Virus record (IMG/VR): IMGVR_UViG_3300025289_000025
Location: 26,297 to 90,296 of that record
Length of the DNA stretch: 64,000 nt
Strand: one strand, 5' to 3'
Source: a virus
Below, piece by piece: positions 2 to 45,934 of the stretch (position 1 is the first letter of the stretch; every line of letters starts with the position of its first letter). The translations under genes and the position numbers were made by a program. The notes below the pieces were generated by a model, which did not search any database, was not told the origin of the DNA, and saw nothing but the letters and a program-made list of their open reading frames with translations.

Positions 2-1669
2 ATGGGTGATATTAATTCTTCCGCAACATATAGTTGGATTCCTGGGGCTAATGCTTTATATGAGGGAGGTGCACTCCCTGAAATGTTTGGGACTCATAGA
101 GTTGTCCCCCCACTTATTTCTCATTTTATTGAAATTGTTGGAAATAAACAATATTTAAATTTATTATTCGCCGTAGCAGGTCATCAGGTAGATAGTATTT
201 CTGATGTTCGAATAAATGAAATAGACTCTAATAATTTCGTGGGAATTTTAATAGAAACTAGATTAGGAACGATTTTTCAAGGCGTTATCCCTTTTTTCGG
301 GGATTCTCGTTATGATCACTCTGTAAGCGTAAGGTTACAAGACCCCGTTACAATTAATATTACTGGTTGTTCTGGTGATGGAAATACCATGACTATTACA
401 GCTGCGAATCATGGATTTTTTAATGGACAATTTGTCGATATAGTTGACGTTGGAGGAATTGATAATATTAATAATTTTACTTTTCAAATTAGTAATGTAA
501 CTAATGATACTTTTGATATATTTTGGGAAGATAATGGTTATCTATCAATGACCGGTTCTTATTCTGGTGGCGGAACGGCTACTAATGGCTGGATTGTTCG
601 GACTACTGATGGAAATGTGGTTGAAGGTTTGGGAGTAGGAATTGTTTTTCCTGCAGGATTATTTTATGCTAATGATGGGGGTGGATTATCTCCTCAAACA
701 ATTAGGTTATTTATAGAATACAGGGTAAGTGGTGCCGGCAATGCTTGGAATAGATTACAAACTGCAGAATATGCCACCACTGTAATTGATACTGGTGCAA
801 GATGGTCTGCCGGACGTTGGGATACTGTAGAGGGCATGATAGGTCTTCAATGGTTTGAAATAGAGGCTGGATCAAATGTTATAACAGACCATTATGACGG
901 AGAGCCGTATCCATTTGATGTATGGGCAGAATATGGGGAAGGAACGCATTTTATAGGAGAATGGCGGTGGATAATTTTCGGCAATTTTATAAATGTTGTT
1001 AGTTTAATCTATCAAAATTATGTGGAAATAACGGGGGGCCAAATAGAACCCCTACGAAAAATGTTTTTTAAGGATCTACTAGATGCAAATTCATATGATG
1101 TTAGGATGCGTCTAGCAGTCGCCTCTCCGTCTGGTTCTAGATATGGTAATGATATTATGTTCGAATCAATACAAGAGATAACATACGATGCTTTTAAATA
1201 TCCAGGTACGGCTTTATTAGCAATTCGTGCTCTTGCTACTGATCAGCTTTCTGGCGGAATGCCTAAGATTGATTGTTTGGTGACTAGGAGCACTGTTCCT
1301 GTATGGACTGGGGCGGCATATGTTTTGAAATCGGCCTCAAACCCTGCTTGGGTATCTTATCATTCGCTTCATAGGGCAATGCCGATAGAGGAGCCTCCTG
1401 TTGGAGCATGGGTCACCGTAAGCATGGTTGCCGGATTGGAGGGATCCAATAGTCTGCTCGACTCTGCTTCCCAGTTTCTTATTCGTTTGCCGAATTTGGT
1501 TGCCGGGCATTCCATCCAAGTGTCGGGTTTCACGAATTCAGTGAATAACGACACTTTCTTTGTGCTAAGCGTAAGCGCAGGGACCATCACGGTAGATTAT
1601 CCTCCTTATGGAATAGTAGATGAGGCTGCGGGGAATGACATAACAATAATTGATTTGGGAGTTATTTAG
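2..1669 (+). CDS. Tail tip / host-specificity protein (TipJ/gpJ-like), N-terminal part; may be truncated at the window edge
   Basis: Motifs PEMFGTHRV.PP, YPGTALLAIRALATDQLSGG.P.IDC.V and SNPAWV are typical of lambda-J-like tail tip proteins; contains inserted beta-rich modules. Confidence 0.75.
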   Translation: MGDINSSATYSWIPGANALYEGGALPEMFGTHRVVPPLISHFIEIVGNKQYLNLLFAVAGHQVDSISDVRINEIDSNNFVGILIETRLGTIFQGVIPFFGDSRYDHSVSVRLQDPVTINITGCSGDGNTMTITAANHGFFNGQFVDIVDVGGIDNINNFTFQISNVTNDTFDIFWEDNGYLSMTGSYSGGGTATNGWIVRTTDGNVVEGLGVGIVFPAGLFYANDGGGLSPQTIRLFIEYRVSGAGNAWNRLQTAEYATTVIDTGARWSAGRWDTVEGMIGLQWFEIEAGSNVITDHYDGEPYPFDVWAEYGEGTHFIGEWRWIIFGNFINVVSLIYQNYVEITGGQIEPLRKMFFKDLLDANSYDVRMRLAVASPSGSRYGNDIMFESIQEITYDAFKYPGTALLAIRALATDQLSGGMPKIDCLVTRSTVPVWTGAAYVLKSASNPAWVSYHSLHRAMPIEEPPVGAWVTVSMVAGLEGSNSLLDSASQFLIRLPNLVAGHSIQVSGFTNSVNNDTFFVLSVSAGTITVDYPPYGIVDEAAGNDITIIDLGVI

Positions 1670-1705
1670 CATGACTATTAAAGATATAAGGCGGGTTTCA
1701 TCATA

Positions 1706-3394
1706 ATGGCAATCACGGGGTATAAGAGTGAAGGTGTTCCAGCATCTAGAATTGATCTGGCTGCGTTTCAAGCATGGGCAGATTGGTGTATTGATATTTC
1801 AGAGGGAGCAGCACCTACTCCAATTCCTTTAGAATCTCATATTTATTTTGATACTGCATTCTCTCTTCGTAAAGCATTGGATATGGTTTCCTTGAATGGA
1901 AGGGGGACTATCGTTCAATTAGGTTCCAAGTTTACGGTGATTATTGATAAAGTAGAAGAAATAGCTGTTCAGAGATTTTTATTTACTATGGGAAATATCA
2001 AAAAAGATTCTTTTGCGGAAGAATTTTTACCGATGGGCGATAGGGCAAATGCTGTAGCTATAACTTATTTTGATAGAGAAATGGATTATATTCGTCAAAC
2101 AGTAGAAGTTTATTCCGACGATTTTGATACTTCTGATAAAGAAATTAATAAAACGTCAATAATTCTTTATGGTTGTACGAGCAGATACCAAGCAACAGAC
2201 CATGGTTCATTTTTAATAAAGTGTAACCGTTATGTCACGGTGACAGTCTCTTTCGATGCAGATGTAGATGCCATCGCTTGTCGTCCAGGGGATATAATAG
2301 ATGTTGCTCATGACGTTCCCAATTGGGGTCAAAGTGGTAGGGTAGTATCCGCCACTGTAAATACAATTACTCTGGATAAAGAAGTAGCAATTGATTCTTC
2401 TTTTCAATATATGGTAGGTATAAAACATATTGACGATGATTCTAGAGAAGAGATTGAAGTTGATGCTGCTACGATGGGAACAGGAAATTACTCTGTATTA
2501 CAAATTCTAACAAATTGGGTCAAAACCCCCGCATCTAACGCTTTATATTATTTTGGGAAAATTGATCAATTAACTAAGGCTGTTAGAATATTGAGGATTT
2601 CTAGATCATCTGATCAACGTAGGAAACTTTCTGGAGTAGAATACGTCCCAGAGGTTTATACAAGATCAGGATCTGTAGTTACTCCTGTTCTTCCGGCAGC
2701 GCAATCTCAAGCATGTGTTGGATTGTCTGCTACAGAAATATGGAGTGGAGGAACAATTTCTTCAGTTTCTCTTTTATGGAGAGGTTTCGCATTAACTTGG
2801 TATGTATATAGAAGTAGTGGCGTTTCTTGGATTTTATTAGGAACTACCAATGGATTGAATTACACCGACTCTGGTTTATCTTATGGTATGAATTACACTT
2901 TCTCCGTTTCTCCTACGGCGAATCCAAATGATGCTAATGCAGATCAAGTAACCGTAAATGTTTCTGGAGCTAACGTAAAAATTGAAGTTGTAGATTCCAT
3001 AGGAATGGTAGATGGTACTATTAAAGTTCAGAATTATAATAGAAGAATAATGGAATTACTGGAAGCTGACGATTATGGGAAGGGGGGTACGCATAAGAGG
3101 AGACTTTCAGAATCTATAGGAATTACTGATGCTATTATTAAAGTTCAGAATTATAATAGAAGAATTTCTGAATCCCCTGGTGTATTGGATTCCTCAGTAT
3201 CTGGATTCGTTCTATTTATCGTTACTAGTGATATAGCAGGAGTAACGGATTCGCTAGCAATTAAAATAATACAAGGTAGAATAATAAGTGAATCATTGGG
3301 TATACCAGATTCCTTGGTTTCTGGGCTGGTTCCGTCTACTGTCGTAGGAGATTCTATAGGAGTATCAGATTCTTTAGCAATCGTAATAATTTAG
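1706..3394 (+). CDS. Tail tip protein C-terminal part (phage-tail_3 domain, FN3-like domain, S-D-x-x-G repeats)
   Basis: IDLAAFQAWADWC, FLFTMGNIKKDSF, LYGCTSRYQA and ACRPGDIIDVAHD..WG.SGRV continue the gpJ architecture. The C-terminus carries the same repeats as the next gene. Confidence 0.75.
   Translation: MAITGYKSEGVPASRIDLAAFQAWADWCIDISEGAAPTPIPLESHIYFDTAFSLRKALDMVSLNGRGTIVQLGSKFTVIIDKVEEIAVQRFLFTMGNIKKDSFAEEFLPMGDRANAVAITYFDREMDYIRQTVEVYSDDFDTSDKEINKTSIILYGCTSRYQATDHGSFLIKCNRYVTVTVSFDADVDAIACRPGDIIDVAHDVPNWGQSGRVVSATVNTITLDKEVAIDSSFQYMVGIKHIDDDSREEIEVDAATMGTGNYSVLQILTNWVKTPASNALYYFGKIDQLTKAVRILRISRSSDQRRKLSGVEYVPEVYTRSGSVVTPVLPAAQSQACVGLSATEIWSGGTISSVSLLWRGFALTWYVYRSSGVSWILLGTTNGLNYTDSGLSYGMNYTFSVSPTANPNDANADQVTVNVSGANVKIEVVDSIGMVDGTIKVQNYNRRIMELLEADDYGKGGTHKRRLSESIGITDAIIKVQNYNRRISESPGVLDSSVSGFVLFIVTSDIAGVTDSLAIKIIQGRIISESLGIPDSLVSGLVPSTVVGDSIGVSDSLAIVII
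3021..3165 (+). repeat. Direct repeat ttaaagttcagaattataatagaagaat (2 copies, ~3021 and ~3138) encoding KVQNYNRRI
   Basis: Exact ~28-nt duplication read from the sequence. Confidence 0.85.
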
Positions 3395-35627: not shown

Positions 35628-36007
35628 ATCCTCGCCTCTGTAAATACTTTATTCCATAATATCGTTATAGGTATTTTCAATTTCCGTACTCCATATTGTT
35701 CTGGAAATCGGATAGCAAATTCCAACTCCCCCGATTCTTTGACTAATACAAATAAAATCATATCGGCCTCTGTTCCCTTATCAAAGTGGAATCTCCCTCT
35801 TCTTCTCTTCCATTTTCCCTTAACACTTTCTGAATGTATCCATTCTTGGCACGATTTTATTTCTATCTTTGCATCTCCCACCGTAACGTCGTATCCAGCT
35901 TTATAATCTGGTTTAATCGGAGGATCTTTGAAAAAGTCCCCCAAATATTTGAGTACTCTTTCGTCAGATTCGCTCCAGTGTCTTGAAAAGAATCCTTTAT
36001 TTTTCAC
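35624..36007 (-). CDS. PD-(D/E)XK-like nuclease
   Basis: YDVTV...IEIKSC motif. Confidence 0.5.
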   Translation of the reverse strand: MKNKGFFSRHWSESDERVLKYLGDFFKDPPIKPDYKAGYDVTVGDAKIEIKSCQEWIHSESVKGKWKRRRGRFHFDKGTEADMILFVLVKESGELEFAIRFPEQYGVRKLKIPITILWNKVFTEARI

Positions 36008-37704
36008 CGGACCAAATTTTCTAACATTTCTAAGCGGAAGTCAGAACTTTCAATATATCTCCAAACTATATTTCCTTCTCGATCTCTTCCATAAGGTTCA
36101 ATTCCCTGGGCCCAATCCACCTGATATGCTTGATGTCCCCCAAGATTCCACGAATTCTTTACTTCTTGCATTAAGGTTTCTGATAACCACCCCCCACGTT
36201 CCTCTACGAAAGCGTTATATTTCCCCCACGTTACTGGGTGGGGTCCGTTATCCCGAACAAACCTAGCAGCAATCATGTTGTTCCCGTAGGAGAACCCTCC
36301 ACCCAGGGGTAAGTAAACATCTGATACGGAGCAGCAGATTTCATCATTATTGATCGGGGAATTCCCGAAATCGAAGGTGGAAGTTGAAAATCCCTCGGAT
36401 TTCATCATTTTCATAAATTCTCCTAAAATCAAAGAACCCAACCACTGACTATCTGACATTAGCAAAAACATTCTACGAAAATCTATTCCTTCCATTTCCA
36501 TTTGGCGTTCAACTCCAGGGGCAGAAGCGGAGTAGCTATATGTATCAAAAGTGATATGTTTAATCCCTGCTTCCCTGACTCCCTGTATCCATTTTTGAAC
36601 ATAATAAGGATCATCGTTCACAAAGACCATGAATGGCTCGATCCTTGCGACAACCCTAACCCCTGCATCCGTAAGGGCTTTTACAGCAAGCATGCGTTTC
36701 TCAAAAGACGGGGCGCCAGGTTCCAACTTTTTATTTAGAATACCATCTGAAGATATCGCCGTCATATGAACAGCAGCACCACCTTTATTATCTGCTAGTG
36801 CCCTAACGTAATCTTCTCTTCCGATTAACGCAGACTTAGTGTTCACCATTATGGGATATGCAATATCAGATAAATATTGCATAAAATTCAAACTGATTCC
36901 TTTTTGAGCTTCGATAGGAAGAAAATCTTCAAATCGAATTCCTAGACGGATGGGAATTTGTAGACTGATTGCTTTATTTAATTCTGGGCCATCTATTTTC
37001 TTTCCCCTATATGGCATTAATTTATCCATCTCTGCTCGAAAGTATTCTGGACGGCAGTGGCGTATTCCAATTTCCTTGGGGTTATCAAAGAATGAAGTAT
37101 AAAGAGAACTGCGAAAAGAGTCCGCAAAACAATTATGTACAAGAATTCCCTCTGCAAAATAATTATTATTAGGTTGACACTCAAAATTATAGACTATTTT
37201 TTTACCACTAGTTTTTGCTCTAGATATAGATTCAATTCTACTCCATTCCCATTTAGAAACACTATTAGATTTAGAATAATATGGGGATATCATCATATCA
37301 TGCATATTTAATTTATTTGCTTCTATCCAACCCCTAGTAGTAAATATTGTATGCTCTGGGGTTAACTTTAGAATATTATTTTTAGTTTTGATAACTATTA
37401 AGTCTTCGGTAGCTCTGCTCATTATTTTTTGAACGATTGATTTTTCTTCTATCAATAAACTATTATAAGTATTTAGAGAAACAACCTCATCTCCCTCTTT
37501 AATTTTTTCTATATTCTTTTTTATACCATTCCACATTTGTATTTTGGTTTTAGGAGGTAAACAATATTTGCATGCGTAGCTGCAATTATGAACTAATTGG
37601 GAAGATGCAAAGAAATTGCTATTTCTATCTACAGTTAAATCAAATACAGCAGTAGGTTTACTAATTTTCCGTAGACTTTTTATTTTCTTAAATCTAGTTT
37701 GCAT
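36004..37704 (-). CDS. Radical SAM paralog B, C-terminal precursor: split-intein C half (40 aa) + CSYACKY + mini-intein (144 aa) + radical SAM body
   Basis: VFDLTV..NSNFFA...VHN|CSYACKY|CLPP...VHN|CFADSF; the body has NTKS, LEPGAPS..KR and ARIEPF, as in SPL-like radical SAM enzymes. Confidence 0.9.
   Translation of the reverse strand: MQTRFKKIKSLRKISKPTAVFDLTVDRNSNFFASSQLVHNCSYACKYCLPPKTKIQMWNGIKKNIEKIKEGDEVVSLNTYNSLLIEEKSIVQKIMSRATEDLIVIKTKNNILKLTPEHTIFTTRGWIEANKLNMHDMMISPYYSKSNSVSKWEWSRIESISRAKTSGKKIVYNFECQPNNNYFAEGILVHNCFADSFRSSLYTSFFDNPKEIGIRHCRPEYFRAEMDKLMPYRGKKIDGPELNKAISLQIPIRLGIRFEDFLPIEAQKGISLNFMQYLSDIAYPIMVNTKSALIGREDYVRALADNKGGAAVHMTAISSDGILNKKLEPGAPSFEKRMLAVKALTDAGVRVVARIEPFMVFVNDDPYYVQKWIQGVREAGIKHITFDTYSYSASAPGVERQMEMEGIDFRRMFLLMSDSQWLGSLILGEFMKMMKSEGFSTSTFDFGNSPINNDEICCSVSDVYLPLGGGFSYGNNMIAARFVRDNGPHPVTWGKYNAFVEERGGWLSETLMQEVKNSWNLGGHQAYQVDWAQGIEPYGRDREGNIVWRYIESSDFRLEMLENLVR
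37132..37563 (-). mobile_element. Mini-intein (144 aa) at the third Cys of CxxxCxxC
   Basis: Starts CLPPKT, block B LTPEH, block F VYNFE..NNNYFAEG, ends HN followed by +1 Cys. Confidence 0.92.
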
Positions 37705-38839
37705 TTATTAAAATCTCCCTGATTTTTCCAATGTAAATAGTTTTAGGGGAAGAAACTGTTTTAAGTTCGTCAATGGCTTTTAAAATAGTTTTATCCACAT
37801 CTTTAGCAAAAATAGAATTAGTGTCTATTCTTATGACTGATATTTGAAATAATTTATCTACATAATCATCTCTTTTACGATCTCTTTTTATCCCCTCTTC
37901 TGAATAATGGTCACTATAACCATCGTATTCTATAATTATTTTAAAATCCGGCAAATAAGCATCGGCAAGAATATAAGAAAAATCTAATTGTCCCAATTGA
38001 AAGAAGCACTCCGGTTCGTATTTAAATCCCATAGAATCTAAATATTCATAAAGTTTCCTTTGCCCTTCGGATATCCCCCCGTTTTTCTTTATGGTTTCTT
38101 TTGCTTTAGCCCAAACTAGTCTAGCAGTTTCTGGATCCTTCATGGGATTGTTATTAGATAACATTCTATTCTTAGCATCCAAACGTTCTCTTCCTTTATT
38201 AGGATGTACATAACCATCTAAAGCACAAGTTCTTTTATAAGACTCGATCATTCTATTTCTTATCTCCAGAACCTTCATGGGGTTATCTTCCTTCATTCTA
38301 GCAGAAGCTATATCCTTGGCTTCCTCAGACATTTTGCTAGGTTTTCCTAATAAATCAGGCCTTAATCTACCTTTATTTGGGTGAACAAAATTAGGATCAT
38401 TTAATGTTTTCATTAGAGATTCATGACTTTTATTTTTAATCTCTTCATCTTTCATAGGATTATTTTCTTTCATTCTAACAGAGGCATTTTCTTTCATTTT
38501 CTTTGTCCAAATTGCCCCCGGTTTTCCCGTCCGGGATTTTGATATCCTTTCCCTAGTCTGTTCTGAACAAATTCTTCTTCTATTAGCATCTCCTATTTTT
38601 TTCTTAACTTCTTCTCTGCAGGCAGGATTAGTATCTCCGAACATACTATCATATTTTCCTTGCTTCCATTGTTCTTTCTTTATTTCAGATTGAATTTGTC
38701 GGGATTCTTCTGATATTCCATTTCTGATAGCTTCTTTTTCTTTTTCTGTCCTTGGAATACCTTTATTCCAAGCTGCTTGCACCCCTGTTTTCCCTTTATT
38801 CCAAGGAATGCAGCCTTTGGCTGGTCCTCGTTTACCCAT
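37694..38839 (-). CDS. Free-standing homing endonuclease: NUMOD3/NPMK repeats + DUF559/Vsr-like nuclease
   Basis: PWNKG, NPMKD repeats, ISEGQ.KLY, ADAY.P....EYDG..DH...D..RD; overlaps both intein halves. Confidence 0.85.
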   Translation of the reverse strand: MGKRGPAKGCIPWNKGKTGVQAAWNKGIPRTEKEKEAIRNGISEESRQIQSEIKKEQWKQGKYDSMFGDTNPACREEVKKKIGDANRRRICSEQTRERISKSRTGKPGAIWTKKMKENASVRMKENNPMKDEEIKNKSHESLMKTLNDPNFVHPNKGRLRPDLLGKPSKMSEEAKDIASARMKEDNPMKVLEIRNRMIESYKRTCALDGYVHPNKGRERLDAKNRMLSNNNPMKDPETARLVWAKAKETIKKNGGISEGQRKLYEYLDSMGFKYEPECFFQLGQLDFSYILADAYLPDFKIIIEYDGYSDHYSEEGIKRDRKRDDYVDKLFQISVIRIDTNSIFAKDVDKTILKAIDELKTVSSPKTIYIGKIREILINAN

Positions 38840-39390
38840 TAATATATCTCCAAAAGTAAGTCGTCTTCATTAAGTTGCCCGGCTTCTACCCACCCTCGTT
38901 TGGTAAAAATTTGGTGATCTTCCGTAACAACTAGAAGTCCTTTTTCAGTTTCTATTTCTACTAAATTAGTTTTTTCTGAAGAAGATGATAACAAAACTTG
39001 GGTAAACTCTACTTTTTTGGTCGATTCGTTATATGAGGCTATCTCATCCCCCACCTTTATATCTTCAATTTTTTTGAATCCTGTTTTAGTAGTAATCAAT
39101 TGACCTTTTGCTATGCAGTATAGTGCATCATAAACATCTGCATTAAGGGGCATGGGGCAATGATTTTTTCTTAGGCTCACTTCAAGGAAAGAAGTAATTT
39201 CATCTTTATTGAGCAATCTTTGTTTTATTTCAAATTTTTCACTATCGAATGAAAATTCCTTGTATCCAATTTTTCTACCCTTTTCTTTAACTAGTCCTTT
39301 ATGTTTTTCTAGAAAGTCCAGCATTCCTCTTCTTGGGATGATGTTCTTCACCAGTTCACGCAACTCCCAATATCCGTTAAATAATTTCAT
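38839..39390 (-). CDS. Radical SAM paralog B, N-terminal precursor: 91-aa extein + split-intein N half (92 aa, starting at 39117)
   Basis: HCPMPLNADVYDALY|CIAKGQLI.T..G.KKIEDIKVGD, block B VTEDH, GWVEAG.L; ends with no C-terminal HN. Confidence 0.9.
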   Translation of the reverse strand: MKLFNGYWELRELVKNIIPRRGMLDFLEKHKGLVKEKGRKIGYKEFSFDSEKFEIKQRLLNKDEITSFLEVSLRKNHCPMPLNADVYDALYCIAKGQLITTKTGFKKIEDIKVGDEIASYNESTKKVEFTQVLLSSSSEKTNLVEIETEKGLLVVTEDHQIFTKRGWVEAGQLNEDDLLLEIY

Positions 39391-39685
39391 TTATTTTAAT
39401 ATCTCCTATTTCTTCTTCCAATTCATTTTCATCAAATTCGTCAATATCAATTTCTATTTTATACCAATATCTGAAAAATGCTTTTTTCAATTTTCTTTTA
39501 AATGCTAACGCCTCTAACTTAGTATCGAATAACCATTCCATATCCCTATACATAATTCCTTCGTCATCATATGTCCCCGCTGCCCACCAATGTTTACTAT
39601 CTTCGGCCATAGCCAAATCGCTTACAAATTTCCATTCTTCCATATTAGAAACTTCAATATTTAAAGTCAATTCGTATTTGGTCAA
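39377..39685 (-). CDS. Hypothetical acidic protein
   Basis: Overlaps both neighbours. Confidence 0.55.
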   Translation of the reverse strand: MTKYELTLNIEVSNMEEWKFVSDLAMAEDSKHWWAAGTYDDEGIMYRDMEWLFDTKLEALAFKRKLKKAFFRYWYKIEIDIDEFDENELEEEIGDIKINEII

Positions 39686-40437
39686 TGATTCGCTCTTTTC
39701 TTAGCTGCTATTCTCATCTTTATTTTAGTTTCTTCAGATTTTGGTTTTCCTTTACCGGATAAACTCATTTTTTTCTTAGTCTCCTCAGAAAGAGGTTTTC
39801 CTTTTAAAGCTAAACTTATTTTTTCTTTATGTTCTTTAGAAAGATGTTTTCCTTTATTAGCTAAACTTAATTTTCTTTTTAACTCCTCCGAAAGAATATG
39901 TTTTCCTTTATTGGCCAAACCTATTTTTGCTTTAGTTTCTTCAGAAGGATGTTTTCCTATATGTATTAAACTCATTCTTTTTCTAGTTTCTTCTGTATGG
40001 TGTTTCCCAAATAAAGGGTGATTTTCTCCTTTATTAGCTAAACTTATTTTCCCCCTCGTTTCTTCTGAATTTATTTTTCCATTATGAGCTAAACTTATTT
40101 TTTTCTTAGTTTTTTCTGTATGCTTATACCCCAAAGTAGAACTAGCATATCTACAAATATCATATCCATATATTCGATCATATGATTTATAAAAGTCTTT
40201 CCAATATTGTTCCCTAGTAGTTAATTGATCTAAATATTTAATTATTTCTATTACCATAAATACAAAAGATTCTTCCCCATATTTATAATAAGCTGCTTGT
40301 ATATGTTTAGTATGTTTTCCCTTACGAAGTTCCGTCAAATGTTGATTCCATCTGTTATACACGTCTTTAGAAGATCCTATATATTTCTTTCCGTTGATTC
40401 TATTAAGAATCATATATACCCCAGATATTCTTTTCAT
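39682..40437 (-). CDS. GIY-YIG homing endonuclease with NUMOD3 repeats
   Basis: SGVY.I.N..NGKKYIGSS, REQYW, and repeated SEETK.K.S...KG. Confidence 0.92.
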   Translation of the reverse strand: MKRISGVYMILNRINGKKYIGSSKDVYNRWNQHLTELRKGKHTKHIQAAYYKYGEESFVFMVIEIIKYLDQLTTREQYWKDFYKSYDRIYGYDICRYASSTLGYKHTEKTKKKISLAHNGKINSEETRGKISLANKGENHPLFGKHHTEETRKRMSLIHIGKHPSEETKAKIGLANKGKHILSEELKRKLSLANKGKHLSKEHKEKISLALKGKPLSEETKKKMSLSGKGKPKSEETKIKMRIAAKKRANH

Positions 40438-41126: not shown

Positions 41127-43394
41127 TTATCTCCCTAACGTATCTTTAAAATATTTTATTGTATATTGCAATCCTTCTTTAAAATTTACTTTTGGCCTCC
41201 ATTTTAATATTTCTTTGGCCAAAGATATATCTGGCTTTCTCCTAGTAGGATCATCTAATGGCAAAGATTTGAATTCTAATTTAGAATCAGATTCGGTTAA
41301 ATTTACTATGAGATTTGCTACGTCCACTATTTTCAATTCTTCTGGATTCCCCAAATTAATAGGGCCCACATATTTATCCTGTTCCATCATAGATATCAAA
41401 CCATTCACAGTATCACTTATATAGCAAAAAGATCGAGTTTGTTTTCCATTTCCATAAATGGTTATAGGTTTACTCGTTAATGCTTGAACTATAAAATTAG
41501 ATACTACCCTTCCATCGTTTATTTTCATATTGGGGCCATAAGTATTATGGCAAGATATTAAATCTCCTCCAATAAAATTTTCAAAATTTTTCACGGAGAA
41601 ATCATAAACATTCTCTTCTATTAAATCAAATTTTTTTATATCTTTGATATGCGCCCATTGAATATCGCTATTCTTTTTTCTTTGTAATTTTTGAACTACG
41701 GTATCTAATCTAGATATATCATAATGGCTTAATCCTTGCACCGTTATTAAGTATCCTTTATAAAGTTTGGGATTATCTTTACTGCATGTAGTATAATAGC
41801 AACAGGTACTCCCAATTATCCCAAATTTTAATAAAATTAAATTTAAATTGTCTATCAAATTTATGCTAGATGAACTAAAAATTAATTTATTACCAGTAGT
41901 TTTAGCATCGTGGTTTCCATCCCCTTCCCAAAATCCTAAAAGGAACCATTTAAGTTGATCTTTGGGTAATTGTATAATCCAATCTGGAATAATTTTTTCT
42001 AGTTGTTTTTTAATTCCAAATTCAAAATATTTAGTTACCAATTCAAAAATGATTTTACTACGAATACAAATATGAGGTTTTGTATCTGAGGAATAAATTT
42101 TTGTTTCTAATTCAAATAAATTATAAATTATTTGATTTAATTTTTGAAGGTATTTCAAATCAGAATAAAAATGTAATTGATAATCCCCCCCATTATTATT
42201 TACTAAACTTCCTTCTGCAACATAAAAACCTAAAAACCACAAAAATTCCTCCATAATATTAATATTATTTTTAATAATATGCTTAGAATCATCTAGAACG
42301 ATATAATCATTGGAGTTTAGTATAATATTATTACTTTTGAGAAAACTGGATTTTATTCTTTTGACTCTTTTGAAATTATTTATAGTTGATGGTAATCCAA
42401 CACCACTTTGTTTACATTTATTTATAAAATATTTATTGTTAATAATCCTTTCTAAATCATCATCATTAGATACATAAAAATTAAAATCTTGTTTTAGAAT
42501 ATTTGATATTTTAAATGGCATTAATGGAATATCTATCCATTTTATTTGATTTGGTATAGCAATAATATCACCAATTACCAAATCTTTGACAAATTTTTCT
42601 TGAATTTTCTGATTTTTATTTAAAATGAAAACTCCATGATCCTCCGTCAATTTTATTTGTTTTCCCCAAGTTAAAAATAATTCGTAGCCGTTTTTTGTCA
42701 CTTTATGTTTATGGATTCCACTAATAGGGGAAAGAACATATCGGTTATCTTTACCAAAGCAAGGAACTATTATATTTTCTATCTCATTTTTTATATCGTC
42801 ATAGCAATCTATAAATTTTTTATACTTTAAAATACCATTTTTATAGTAAATAACTTTTTGGTCCCCCGTAAGACTATTGAATATTCTAACCACCCGGATG
42901 GGAACATTATTTTGTCTGTAGTAATCGAAAAATAACGTCTCTGCACATCTTTTCCCTTCATCATAGCATGATCTAATTCCGATTGGATTTACATTGCCCC
43001 AATATTCCTCCGTTTGAGGATGTTCTTGGGGATTCCCGTATACTTCTGATGTGGATGCTTGCAATATTTTAGCTTTAGTCCTCTTGGCTAATCCTAGCAT
43101 ATTTATAGCCCCGTGAACTATCGTCTTAGTGGTTTGAACGGGGTCCTTTTGGTAATAAATTGGGGATGCCGGAGCCGCTAGATTATATATCTCGTCTACT
43201 TCAATATATAGGGGAAAGGTTACATCATGACGTAATAATTCAAAATTAGGATTAGTCATTAATGGAATAATATTTTTTTTGGTAGAAGAAAAAAAATTGT
43301 CTAAGCAAATAACTTCATTTCTCAATTCCAATAATTTTTTACATAGGTGAGATCCAATAAAACCGGCTCCCCCCGTTACTAATATTCTTTTCAA
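41127..43394 (-). CDS. UDP-glucuronate decarboxylase (UDP-xylose synthase)-like SDR, intein-containing
   Basis: [36 protein letters not shown]|[19 protein letters not shown]; the spliced product is 311 aa. Confidence 0.93.
41544..42875 (-). mobile_element. Contiguous intein (444 aa) with LAGLIDADG endonuclease
   Basis: Starts SLTGDQ, block [14 protein letters not shown] and [15 protein letters not shown], ends CHN followed by +1 Thr. Confidence 0.93.
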
Positions 43395-44572
43395 AATAGA
43401 AGTCCTTTCTTATCTTCAACGGAGCCTTCTTCTTTTCTTCCATAAATATTCATACCATTTTTATCTTTATCTAAAACTTTAATTTCTGGGCTATCATTCA
43501 AAGAGAAATATTGTCCCTTTCCATTCCAAATTTCTTTCATTCGATCATAAGCCTCAGGCTGTCGAAAGGTTATTGCTTCCATATCATCCCAACAAACTAA
43601 CCCCTTTTCCATTATTATTTTACAAGCATGTTGAAAAGTAAATTCGTAGGGAACGAATAGCCCATCAACTCCACAACAACTTTCACAAGAATTACTAAAT
43701 GGAAAATTTACAAAATCAGGGGAGGACGCAGGGACGTTTTTATTTTTCAAAATTTCTCTAAATTGTTTTCCTACGGGAGTCCAATTTTCATCTAGATTCT
43801 TTTCCAAAAGTTTGACGTAATTATATCCTCTGCTTTCGAATTCTTTTTGAGCTATTTTGTAATTTGACGTTCGATAATTGAAAAAACTAACATGTTTAGC
43901 TCCAGTACGAGATGCCATCTCAGCGTACCCTTCCAACATGTCTTCTTTTGAATTGATTCCCACTAGGATTGGTTCCCAACGCACAGCCGTCCAAATACCC
44001 ATGTCGTTTAGCGTCTTAACTAGGGACCATCTCATAGATGGGGGAGGTAATCCCGGCTCCAATTTATAATTCAGAGTGTCACTTCCCCCCATGATAGAAA
44101 TGATAATAGCTACGTTTATATCTTTCAGAAGGTCCAAATATTTTTTTAATCCGACGTAATGGCTTTTCGTTTCGATGATCATGGGTACTTTATATTCTTT
44201 GAATAATTTGAGAACTGGGACAACTACGTTATCCCTCATATCTTCTAAACAGAATGTTTCTGCTTTGCTTCCCATATTAAAAGGGAGTCCTCTACGAAGA
44301 CATTGAATATTCCAATTATCGTAATATTTATCTGATCCAAAGGCTTTATCAAATAATTGTTTAAAGTCATCTGGATTACAGGCCCTTACTAAATCTCTTG
44401 TCCACCCCGTATAATAATGGTTATATAGTCCTGCCTCCATTTCTCTACAAAAACAATTATGAACTAGTACCCCGTCTGCAAAATAATTGGGGTTATCTTC
44501 CACTTCTATATTAAATACTTGAATAGTTTCTTCTTCAGGCATAACTTTTGATATTTCTACCCATTTAAGCAT
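43391..44572 (-). CDS. Radical SAM paralog A, C-terminal precursor: split-intein C half (39 aa, 44456-44572) + radical SAM body
   Basis: [21 protein letters not shown]|CFCREM; body has IETKS, LEPGLP...R, VRWEPI and ESCCG. Confidence 0.9.
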
Positions 44573-45537
44573 TGCAATTTCTCCACGATTATACTTTCTA
44601 AATTTGGGAGGTCTTCTGGCAATATTCGGATAGTTTTAACCCCATAACAAAATTTCAGTAATCGGTCTCTTATAGAATCTAATTTTGGTCCTTTCCCATC
44701 TCGATGAGTATAAAACCCGTCATATTCCCAAGCTATGTTGTTTATCGGGTCGTAGGCATCTACGAAAATATAAGAATACGGTTCTCCTTTGAAAATAAAT
44801 TGTTGTTCGGGGAAAAATTTTATTTTTAAATTATTCAAAGCGGAATATAATGCTTTTTGTCCCTTTGATATATGGCCGTTAGTATTTAAAATAGCGAATA
44901 TATTTTTTAAGTGTTTAGCAAAGTTTTCAGGTTGAGTATGGGACCAATGTCGTTCCCCAGAAGATTTTGCAGCTATAATAGGATCTTTCATTGGATTATT
45001 ATTAGTCATTCTTTCTATAGACCACTCGTTTCTCTTCCCCGTATTAGGATGAACGTATCCTTCTTGAGCATAGGTTTTTCTATGACTAACTAAGGATTTT
45101 GCTAAAATTTTAGGATCTTTCATAGGATTTGTTCTTTTAAAGAAATTATTAGAATTATGGCAAGGATTTTTATCTGAAGATAGTTCTATTTTTCTACAGC
45201 TCATACAAATTTTGCTCCCCGAACATTTTTTAGAACCGCAAATACAAATAACTGATTCTAAAGATCCTTCTGGGTATTTTTTCTTTTTTAATTTCATCGG
45301 GTTTTGATCGGTGGTTAATAAAATATCCCAACATTTTCTACAATGTTTATGATCCTTAAAAATTTCCTCCCCACAAACAACGCAATGGGATACTATTTTA
45401 GGCTTAATTTTAGGGGTAGGTCTACATCTAGGGTCTTTTATAGATACTAATTTTTTCCAACAATCCCAACATCTTTTAGAAGTGCCCCTCCAAACTATTT
45501 TACCACAATCTATGCAAGTAGGGATTTCATTTTTCAT
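44557..45537 (-). CDS. Free-standing homing endonuclease: CxxC repeats + NPMK repeats + DUF559/Vsr-like nuclease
   Basis: ISKGQKALY, SYIFVDAYDP....EYDG..TH...D..RD; paralog of 37694-38839. Confidence 0.85.
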   Translation of the reverse strand: MKNEIPTCIDCGKIVWRGTSKRCWDCWKKLVSIKDPRCRPTPKIKPKIVSHCVVCGEEIFKDHKHCRKCWDILLTTDQNPMKLKKKKYPEGSLESVICICGSKKCSGSKICMSCRKIELSSDKNPCHNSNNFFKRTNPMKDPKILAKSLVSHRKTYAQEGYVHPNTGKRNEWSIERMTNNNPMKDPIIAAKSSGERHWSHTQPENFAKHLKNIFAILNTNGHISKGQKALYSALNNLKIKFFPEQQFIFKGEPYSYIFVDAYDPINNIAWEYDGFYTHRDGKGPKLDSIRDRLLKFCYGVKTIRILPEDLPNLESIIVEKLQCLNG

Positions 45538-45934
45538 AAATTAATACTTTATCCCCCTTTATTAATTCCCCTGCTTCCACCCACCCCCGATCAGTAAATA
45601 CTTTATGATTTTTAGTTATTTTCAATAATTTATTTCCTATTTTTATTTTGATAATTTCTGAACTCCTATTCATAGTATGTTTAATTAATTTAGATTCTAC
45701 TTCAAATGTTTTTTCATTATAAGTTAATACTTTATCCCCTACTTTCAACTCTTCTATAGGTTTAGAAGTACCATTTGATAAGTTAATTGGTGTATCTCCT
45801 GATAGACACATCCAATTGCAACCTGCACTGCAACCAGCAAAGCAATCCCCCCCGAATGCTTGAGGACAACAAAGACTATCTGAACGAAATCCTACGATGG
45901 AACCAAATTTTAATTCTCTAATATCTTTTTTCAA
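45527..45934 (-). CDS. Radical SAM paralog A, N-terminal precursor: 42-aa extein + split-intein N half (93 aa, starting at 45808)
   Basis: CCPQAFGGDCFAGCSAGCNWM|CLSGDT.I....G..KPIEELKVGD, block B ITKNH, GWVEAGEL; TTG start. Confidence 0.88.
   Translation of the reverse strand: MKKDIRELKFGSIVGFRSDSLCCPQAFGGDCFAGCSAGCNWMCLSGDTPINLSNGTSKPIEELKVGDKVLTYNEKTFEVESKLIKHTMNRSSEIIKIKIGNKLLKITKNHKVFTDRGWVEAGELIKGDKVLIYEK

Follow-up and report, generated by a model that had tools for sequence, protein, structure and literature searches.

Two inteins seven residues apart in the CX3CX2C motif of a radical SAM gene from an uncultured phage

Here, we have analyzed a 64,000-nucleotide stretch of DNA (hereafter the window) from the IMG/VR virus record IMGVR_UViG_3300025289_000025, a 90,296-base sequence of an uncultured phage with an estimated completeness of 97%. 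In this window, a gene for a radical S-adenosylmethionine (SAM) enzyme is interrupted twice within the CxxxCxxC motif that would bind its [4Fe-4S] cluster, and the two interruptions are inteins separated by only seven residues. One of them is a split intein whose N- and C-terminal halves (IntN and IntC) are encoded in different open reading frames (ORFs); the other is a contiguous mini-intein. On the basis of their sequences and distribution, the two are likely to be independent selfish class-1 inteins that come from different lineages, share a single homing hotspot as a stack and were probably acquired successively. We regard the resulting need for two splicing events as a by-product of double parasitism and not as an evolved switch. 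In the following, coordinates refer to the window, proteins and loci are cited by our own P and L numbers, and Cys1, Cys2 and Cys3 denote the three cysteines of the motif unless the first residue of an intein is specified.

The locus consists of three consecutive ORFs (A, B and C). These and all intein and extein parts lie on the minus strand, as follows:

38839-39390, minus strand: ORF A, 183 residues, made up of the 91-residue N-extein and the 92-residue IntN; stop codon at 38839-38841
39118-39390, minus strand: N-extein of the radical SAM protein, 91 residues, ending DALY (...CPMPLNADVYDALY); aligns to the N-termini of uninterrupted homologs
38842-39117, minus strand: IntN of the split intein at Cys1, 92 residues; intein Cys1 (CIAKGQ..., codon 39117-39115), block B VTEDH, end EIY followed by the stop codon
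37694-38839, minus strand: ORF B, 381 residues (homing endonuclease gene, 37697-38839), between both halves of the split intein
36004-37704, minus strand: ORF C, 566 residues, made up of IntC, CSYACKY, the mini-intein and the C-extein; stop codon at 36004-36006
37585-37704, minus strand: IntC of the split intein at Cys1, 40 residues; block F VFDLTV..NSNFF, end LVHN
37564-37584, minus strand: middle extein CSYACKY, 7 residues (21 nucleotides), holding Cys1 and Cys2 of the motif
37132-37563, minus strand: cis mini-intein at Cys3, 144 residues, without an endonuclease domain; CLPP..., LTPEH, C-terminal end VYNFEC..NNNYFAEGILVHN, its last residues being LVHN, followed by the +1 Cys
36007-37131, minus strand: C-extein, 375 residues, starting at Cys3 (CFADSF...); radical SAM core, SplB/Rv2578c-like

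This anatomy matched to the base what an initial annotation of the window had described, namely a split intein and a mini-intein seven residues apart, with a middle extein of 21 nucleotides (read here from 37584 to 37564). The predicted requirement of the motif for one trans- and one cis-splicing event, also stated there, follows from the structure of ORFs A and C. At its start, ORF B shares bases with the ORF A stop codon (TAATG); at its end, it reaches 11 nucleotides into ORF C. The split intein has Cys1 of the motif as its +1 residue, and the mini-intein has Cys3; Cys2 stands at position -3 of the first residue of the mini-intein (C-K-Y|C).

Both inteins keep all splicing residues (the initial Cys, TxxH, block F, the terminal HN and Cys+1), and all frames are open. 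Pfam Intein_splicing was matched in ORF C with 68.7 bits (cut-off 35.8) and PT-HINT in ORF A with 38 bits (cut-off 27.7). The mini-intein has blocks A, B, F and G, the terminal HN and a nucleophile at +1, and thereby the sequence features of a class-1 intein of the HINT fold. The split intein has those of a fractured gene: the ORFs lie on the same strand, IntN closes the first of them, an IntC that ends in HN and is followed by the nucleophile opens the second, and a free-standing homing endonuclease gene, ORF B, is found between the halves. The two inteins are 36% identical over the IntN region.

The precision of both insertions was examined by joining the three extein pieces in silico (473 residues) and aligning the product to ten uninterrupted homologs. 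Not a single gap was observed in the 48 columns around both junctions against any of the ten, and the CxxxCxxC motif was restored once both inteins had been removed, which bears out the earlier assignment of Cys1 and Cys3 as +1 nucleophiles of two different inteins. For the C-extein, 542 homologs were found at E<=1e-5; most of those among the 120 matches listed have 460-480 residues and read ...D-G-L-x-C-x3-C-x2-C-F/Y-A-D.... The Pfam Radical_SAM model scored 22.3 bits in the interrupted ORF C, which is below the cut-off, and 29.9 bits in an uninterrupted homolog with 75% identity (P0003), just over the cut-off of 29.5. With a CX3CX2C motif after both excisions and the core domain, the enzyme belongs to the radical SAM superfamily. 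When the NCBIfam equivalog models for PA0069 and Rv2578c were applied to P0003, scores of 57.9 bits (cut-off 360) and 51.8 bits (cut-off 430) were obtained, respectively; judging from these scores, the host enzyme is related to the PA0069 and Rv2578c radical SAM families but is not a member of them. Relatives bear the Joint Genome Institute label 'DNA repair photolyase', and a search of the host-family profile against PDB sequences revealed no solved relative. Curators are aware of inteins in the wider enzyme group, since one NCBIfam model is called 'intein-containing Rv2578c family radical SAM protein'.

The locus was present in 20 public sequencing runs from 16 studies of groundwater, sediment and soil, a run being counted if it contained 50% or more of the words sampled from 36900-39400. 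Four runs from four studies were examined further: in three of them a single contig extended over 35900-39500 with 0 differences, and the contig in the fourth covered 36931-39500. It should be noted that the samples of these four runs may include the source of the IMG/VR record. An assembly chimera was excluded by such locus-spanning contigs from several studies, and a frameshifted single gene was excluded as well, since natural split alleles correspond to the two halves, IntN and IntC. In addition, P0001 is a 99%-identical variant protein with the same layout as the window, and the ORF A protein was recorded from 41 contigs. One database variant of ORF A (P0125, 164 residues) lacks 19 residues inside IntN and could be either a decaying allele or an assembly error. 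There was no RNA run among the sequencing runs with the locus, which is not evidence of absence, and no deposited phage was matched when the locus was compared by blastn.

We then analyzed the distribution of the two inteins in 80 related viral loci, which were found with an alignment query (A1; a single C-extein query found none). The majority of these loci (68) had no intein at either site. The Cys3 intein alone was present in eight (L003, L004, L006, L079, L012, L067, L081 and L005, the last of which is cut upstream) and the Cys1 split intein alone in four (L015, L018, L053 and L056), and none of the 80 had both. At the protein level, both inteins were observed only in P0001 among 36 inspected homologs, which were picked mainly for unusual length from 120 among the matches listed. 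The closest relatives by C-extein identity (L003, L004 and L006 with 84%, L079 with 81%) have the Cys3 mini-intein and an empty Cys1 site, and the ortholog of the mini-intein occurs at the same site in these four loci and in P0002. Compared with the ortholog in L003 (141 residues), 101 of 144 aligned positions were identical, and the proportions of synonymous and nonsynonymous differences (pS and pN), calculated on a gapped codon alignment and to be read as a rough measure of constraint, were 0.62 and 0.18; the exteins gave a pS of 0.66-0.73 and a pN of 0.19-0.20. As the values for the mini-intein are much like those for the exteins, it seems to have diverged vertically, together with the host gene and under purifying selection.

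The split intein at Cys1 has homologs of both halves elsewhere: IntN halves at Cys1 were identified in P0124, P0126, P0133, P0134, L015, L053 and L111, and IntC halves in L015, L053, P0062 and P0179. The complete series of IntN, endonuclease and IntC at Cys1 without a Cys3 intein was observed in L015, L018, L053, L056, L088, L112 and others, and in L109 the allele of this intein is contiguous (cis). Judging from this distribution, the Cys1 cassette is a mobile element in its own right, and its occurrence beside the mini-intein would reflect either a gain in the window lineage or a loss in the L003 lineage. The positions of the insertions also vary. Among 15 N-fragment homologs, six end at Cys1, seven at Cys3 and two at an upstream Cys (H|CPMPLN), and an intein with Cys2 as the +1 residue was found in P0037 and P0154. 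The same split-intein lineage (CIAEGQ... / ...NFF..LVHN) was also observed at the upstream Cys H|CPMPLN in P0014, P0121, P0130 and P0136, and P0037 has a near-identical IntC start (MQTRFKKIK...) at Cys2. Such a pattern suggests that the split intein may have moved between neighbouring Cys codons.

Other lineages in which both sites are filled were identified by two approaches. In the first, the complete ORF C was compared by phmmer with 1.84 billion representatives, and we examined 15 of the 150 matches listed. One of them, P0179, is a protein of 139 residues that consists of IntC, CPHKCSY and IntN, and P0189 and P0191 are of the same type. P0177 contains an N-extein, a contiguous Cys1 intein, CPFACRY and IntN, and P0206 a different N-extein, a contiguous intein, CSGKCQY and an IntN fused to an endonuclease. 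The second approach was a scan of DNA with a degenerate pattern for NFF-x4-LVHN-C-x3-C-x2-C. Viral contigs gave 11 stretches, of which four were double (L085, L086, L089 and L092, all one lineage) and seven single; metagenome contigs gave 22, with four double (L097, L098, L106 and L111) and 18 single; cellular genomes gave 0 matches to the pattern. A query for fused double-intein forms longer than 657 residues returned two proteins, neither with two inteins, which is weak evidence.

The double forms differ considerably in their layout. L085 is the mirror of the window, with a contiguous Cys1 intein, a split Cys3 intein and a zinc-finger endonuclease fused to IntC. In L111 (a metagenome contig of 2192 nucleotides; 357-2152, minus strand), the radical SAM gene is divided into three pieces with two endonuclease genes, in the order N-extein plus IntN, Vsr-like endonuclease, IntC plus CPYNCRY plus IntN, and a zinc-finger endonuclease running off the contig end. 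Middle proteins of this kind (IntC, seven residues and IntN) stand alone with 139-145 residues in P0179 and L111. L097 (2365-5868) encodes a 1167-residue radical SAM protein of another family with two contiguous inteins seven residues apart (LVHN|CPYSCTF|CLVGDS...), the second of which contains a long low-complexity insert and ends with VSN rather than VHN. Two further metagenome contigs, L106 and L108, have a near-identical IntC at Cys1 of another radical SAM family, followed by the extein in L108 and by a split Cys3 intein in L106; on the basis of these sequences, we interpret the pair as a single genetic background that is polymorphic for the presence or absence of the second intein. Thus, the window and seven others make eight lineages with both sites filled, which span at least three radical SAM families and show all four combinations of cis and trans: besides the window, cis plus trans in the L085 type, P0177 and P0206, trans plus trans in P0179, L111/P0189 and L106/P0191, and cis plus cis in L097. 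Separately, four proteins (P0190, P0233, P0247 and P0215) have tandem HINT domains with short linkers, and no radical SAM exteins could be recognized in them. These four may represent HINT repeats of bacterial intein-like or pretoxin type, and they matched only because ORF C contains one and a half inteins.

The ORF between the intein halves, ORF B, contains NPMK/NUMOD3-like repeats, followed at the C-terminus by a predicted nuclease domain of Vsr/DUF559-like type. ORF B as a whole had no Pfam match at E<=0.01. Its PHROG matches were weak and included phrog_9084 homing endonuclease (4.4e-5), its C-terminal 138 residues matched DUF559/MTES_1575 at an E of about 0.009, which is below the cut-off, and in a phmmer comparison with PDB sequences it had chance matches only. 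Relatives of ORF B were found by tblastn to adjoin Cys1 split inteins in many loci, and eight relatives were used to build a family alignment and profile (A2). The profile matched PDB 3hrl (DUF559, E 1.7e-5) and 3r3p ('Mobile intron protein', E 2.7e-4), the latter of which we take to be the catalytic domain of I-Bth0305I. DUF559 was matched by six of the eight members and NUMOD3 by three, and six residues (D293, E304, D306, H311, D320 and D324) do not vary among the aligned sequences, in the arrangement D, E-x-D-G, H, D and R-D. When the DNA flanking Cys1 was compared between occupied and empty sites, conservation was observed at the codon level only, and no clear endonuclease target could be recognized. 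By the profile matches of its family, ORF B is probably a homing endonuclease of the Vsr-like type that occurs between split-intein halves in phage fractured genes (Dassa 2009; PMC2677866).

A working model for the maturation of the enzyme can be proposed. The starts and stops of ORFs A, B and C overlap, and co-translation of the three is probable. Cis-splicing of the mini-intein would join CSYACKY to CFADSF..., and association of IntN with IntC, followed by trans-splicing, would join ...DALY to CSYACKY; the two reactions would use separate catalytic residues. If the mini-intein came out first, the intermediate would be IntC-CSYACKYCFADSF..., the architecture of the natural C-fragments of L015, L053 and P0062. 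If trans-splicing came first, it would be N-extein-CSYACKY-mini-intein-C-extein, the architecture of natural P0002 and L003. Since both half-spliced intermediates resemble natural single-intein substrates, no order of splicing should be required, and either order would yield the same 473-residue enzyme with an intact [4Fe-4S]-binding motif. Cis-splicing would probably precede trans-splicing in most molecules because it is intramolecular. The Fe-S motif would be complete only after the Cys3 event, and the conserved 91-residue N-terminal domain would be attached only after the Cys1 event, so that full activity would need both events, as would that of any two-intein protein.

The patchy spread of the two inteins, the endonuclease beside one of them and the occurrence of all cis/trans combinations look like the work of selfish elements at a homing hotspot. 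By homing or recombination, the Cys1 cassette most likely came into an allele in which the Cys3 mini-intein was already present. In the haloarchaeal MCM genes, double inteins mostly arise by invasion of alleles already carrying one intein (Turgeman-Grott 2023; PMC10643990), and the sequential origin proposed for the window fits these findings. Several points weigh against our interpretation. The order of acquisition was derived from unrooted similarity, and the same pattern would result if the L003 lineage had precisely lost the Cys1 cassette. Synonymous sites are near saturation, and pS and pN therefore indicate constraint only roughly. ORF B alone had no Pfam match above the cut-off, and its family call comes from the profile of eight relatives. 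No intein-less joint was observed in the contigs of the four runs, which says little as contigs drop rare variants. Finally, the recurrence of double occupancy could mean that it is tolerated or even favoured, which stacking of selfish elements leaves unexplained.

The initial annotation had gone further and regarded the enzyme as a two-input AND gate that might be regulated by the order of splicing or by steric interference. In a fuller version of this idea, splicing order, steric interference or a disulfide between Cys45 and Cys48 (the Cys-3/Cys1 pair of the mini-intein) would delay an oxygen-labile enzyme until conditions became reducing. We consider such a gate unlikely. It draws on the CKY|C junction, where, as had been noted, a Cys stands at -3 of the first residue of the mini-intein, and on the Pyrococcus abyssi MoaA intein, in which a native Cys-3/Cys1 disulfide controls splicing (reviewed in PMC3922620 and PMC10663303). 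That intein resembles the one in the window in having a radical SAM host, an extein Cys at -3 and an oxygen-sensitive host enzyme; it is a single, cis-splicing, archaeal intein, and no second or split intein is mentioned in the portions of the two reviews considered here. Redox control is reported for the MoaA intein and would be a prediction for the phage mini-intein. Further arguments for a gate are that the heptapeptide has three redox-active positions beside two splice junctions and that seven other lineages likewise have both sites filled. However, the Cys at -3 is Cys2 of the motif, and any Cys3 intein in a CX3CX2C enzyme will have it; the geometry, which is all that stands behind the redox idea, is thus common to every Cys3 intein and not specific to the double arrangement. 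Each intein also occurs in nature without the other (the Cys3 intein in P0002 and L003, the Cys1 intein in L015, L053 and P0062), and we found no support in the sequence data for control by order or steric effects. The fact that 68 of the 80 related viral loci are intein-free at both sites implies that the enzyme needs no such control, and the homing endonuclease beside the Cys1 intein points to a selfish element.

A related possibility starts from the recurrence itself. As the Cys1 plus Cys3 layout exists in eight lineages, including three-piece genes, the Cys-rich heptapeptide might couple both junctions, through a Cys-3/Cys1 or Cys+1 disulfide or by binding a metal, and the [4Fe-4S] site of the oxygen-labile enzyme would be put together in a set order and only when conditions are reducing; the pair would then be a natural tandem-splicing device that has been selected. 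This also appears improbable to us. Even less probable is a decaying gene, in which one intein is dead, the locus is a pseudogene and a second radical SAM paralog in the same genome (43391-45934) covers the function, an idea to which the ORF A variant without 19 IntN residues (P0125) would lend itself. Neither intein has lost a splicing residue, the frames are open, pN is far below pS in the comparison with L003 for both mini-intein and exteins, the locus is identical in contigs from four studies and present in the 20 runs mentioned above, and the paralog is only 24% identical and itself fractured by a split intein. Least credible of all is a cross-reaction in which the Cys1 IntC and the N-lobe of the Cys3 intein release a cyclic heptapeptide instead of, or besides, the enzyme: the sequence order IntC, seven residues, N-lobe is that used in engineered intein-mediated peptide cyclisation, it stands alone in the 139-145-residue proteins of P0179 and L111, and the two intein families are related, but an identity of 36% over IntN is low for cross-reactivity, as known from orthogonal split inteins, the N-lobe of the contiguous Cys3 intein in the window is bound by its own C-lobe, and cyclisation would destroy an enzyme whose exteins are under purifying selection.

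Stacking of two selfish inteins remains the interpretation we prefer, and the arrangement is a variant of the fractured-gene layout that we did not find in the literature. Two known cases come close to parts of it. The dnaE gene of Trichodesmium erythraeum, as reportedly described by Liu and Yang in 2003, is a split gene with several inteins that needs both cis- and trans-splicing; its inteins are said to lie far apart in the DNA polymerase and not in one short motif, and its split halves reportedly have no endonuclease gene between them. Shi and Muir are said to have engineered in 2005 an IntC-extein-IntN middle piece that is joined to two partners by orthogonal split inteins. This man-made layout is that of the natural P0179 and L111; compared with it, the window has one split intein only, and its natural middle extein has seven residues.

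Among published natural systems, of which we considered portions of the papers cited, the phage fractured genes (Dassa 2009; PMC2677866) are the most similar. They share with the window the order of N-extein plus IntN, endonuclease ORF and IntC plus C-extein on one strand with overlapping frames in a phage, a Vsr-like endonuclease with NUMOD-type motifs, an IntN of about 90 residues and an IntC of about 40. Unlike them, the window has a radical SAM host, which is outside the enzyme types named in that portion, an insertion at an Fe-S ligand Cys and a second, contiguous intein seven residues on. One locus described there (DnaE-1) has part of an additional intein, the spacing of which is not stated in the same portion. 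The haloarchaeal inteins MCM-a and MCM-d (PMC10643990) are likewise two inteins in one conserved catalytic domain, and alleles with one, both or neither co-exist. Unlike the inteins in the window, both are cis-splicing, most have their own endonuclease domain and the hosts are cellular; no spacing as short as seven residues is given in the part of the paper considered. In DnaB, insertion sites are known that are two residues apart, and the co-occupied pair is instead b plus a (Novikova 2016; PMC4760082). We found no paper dealing with radical SAM genes interrupted by split inteins or with a CX3CX2C motif that contains two inteins; more hosts and further double inteins may appear in the supplements to Dassa 2009 and Novikova 2016. 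A paper on a Campylobacter phage (PMC3322345) touches on inteins and on radical SAM as separate matters and has no bearing on the arrangement. Three-piece genes joined by two split inteins were found described only as an engineered system.

Several neighbouring genes in the window have features of the same kind. The radical SAM paralog at 43391-45934 (minus strand) is likewise fractured:

45527-45934, minus strand: N-fragment of the paralog (...CFAGCSAGCNWM) plus IntN
44557-45537, minus strand: related endonuclease of the paralog, with zinc ribbons
43391-44572, minus strand: C-fragment of the paralog, IntC plus CFCREM...

Its intein resembles the Cys3 type, with 41% identity to the mini-intein and a 70-nucleotide stretch of 70% identity at the intein ends, and the Cys spacing after predicted splicing would read C-x3-C-x3-C. 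A 755-residue NAD-dependent epimerase/dehydratase-like ORF at 41127-43394 (minus strand) contains a large putative intein with LAGLIDADG-like blocks. According to the translation, this intein would extend from ...VVRIFN|SLTGDQ... to ...ISCHN|TYGPN, beginning with Ser and having Thr at +1. Finally, a free-standing GIY-YIG-like ORF of 251 residues lies at 39682-40437 (minus strand), just upstream of the N-fragment of the doubly interrupted gene. It has a run of about 51-nucleotide tandem repeats (families D1/D2) encoding K-x-S-L-A-x-K-G-K modules and is probably another homing endonuclease with NUMOD-like repeats.

The interest of the arrangement comes mainly from its recurrence and from its reach to natural three-piece genes. 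It offers a natural test case for two HINT domains that fold and react with only seven residues between the C-terminal junction of one and the N-terminal junction of the other, and it makes possible a direct test of whether the redox trap proposed for the MoaA intein has a wider range. Natural intein pairs that must stay orthogonal and tolerate a very short, Cys-rich extein should also be useful for multi-fragment protein ligation. With inteins whose +1 residue is Cys1, Cys2, Cys3 or an upstream Cys, the CX3CX2C codons of phage radical SAM genes appear to be a multi-site homing hotspot, which would extend the clustering of inteins in active-site motifs from ATPase motifs to Fe-S ligands.

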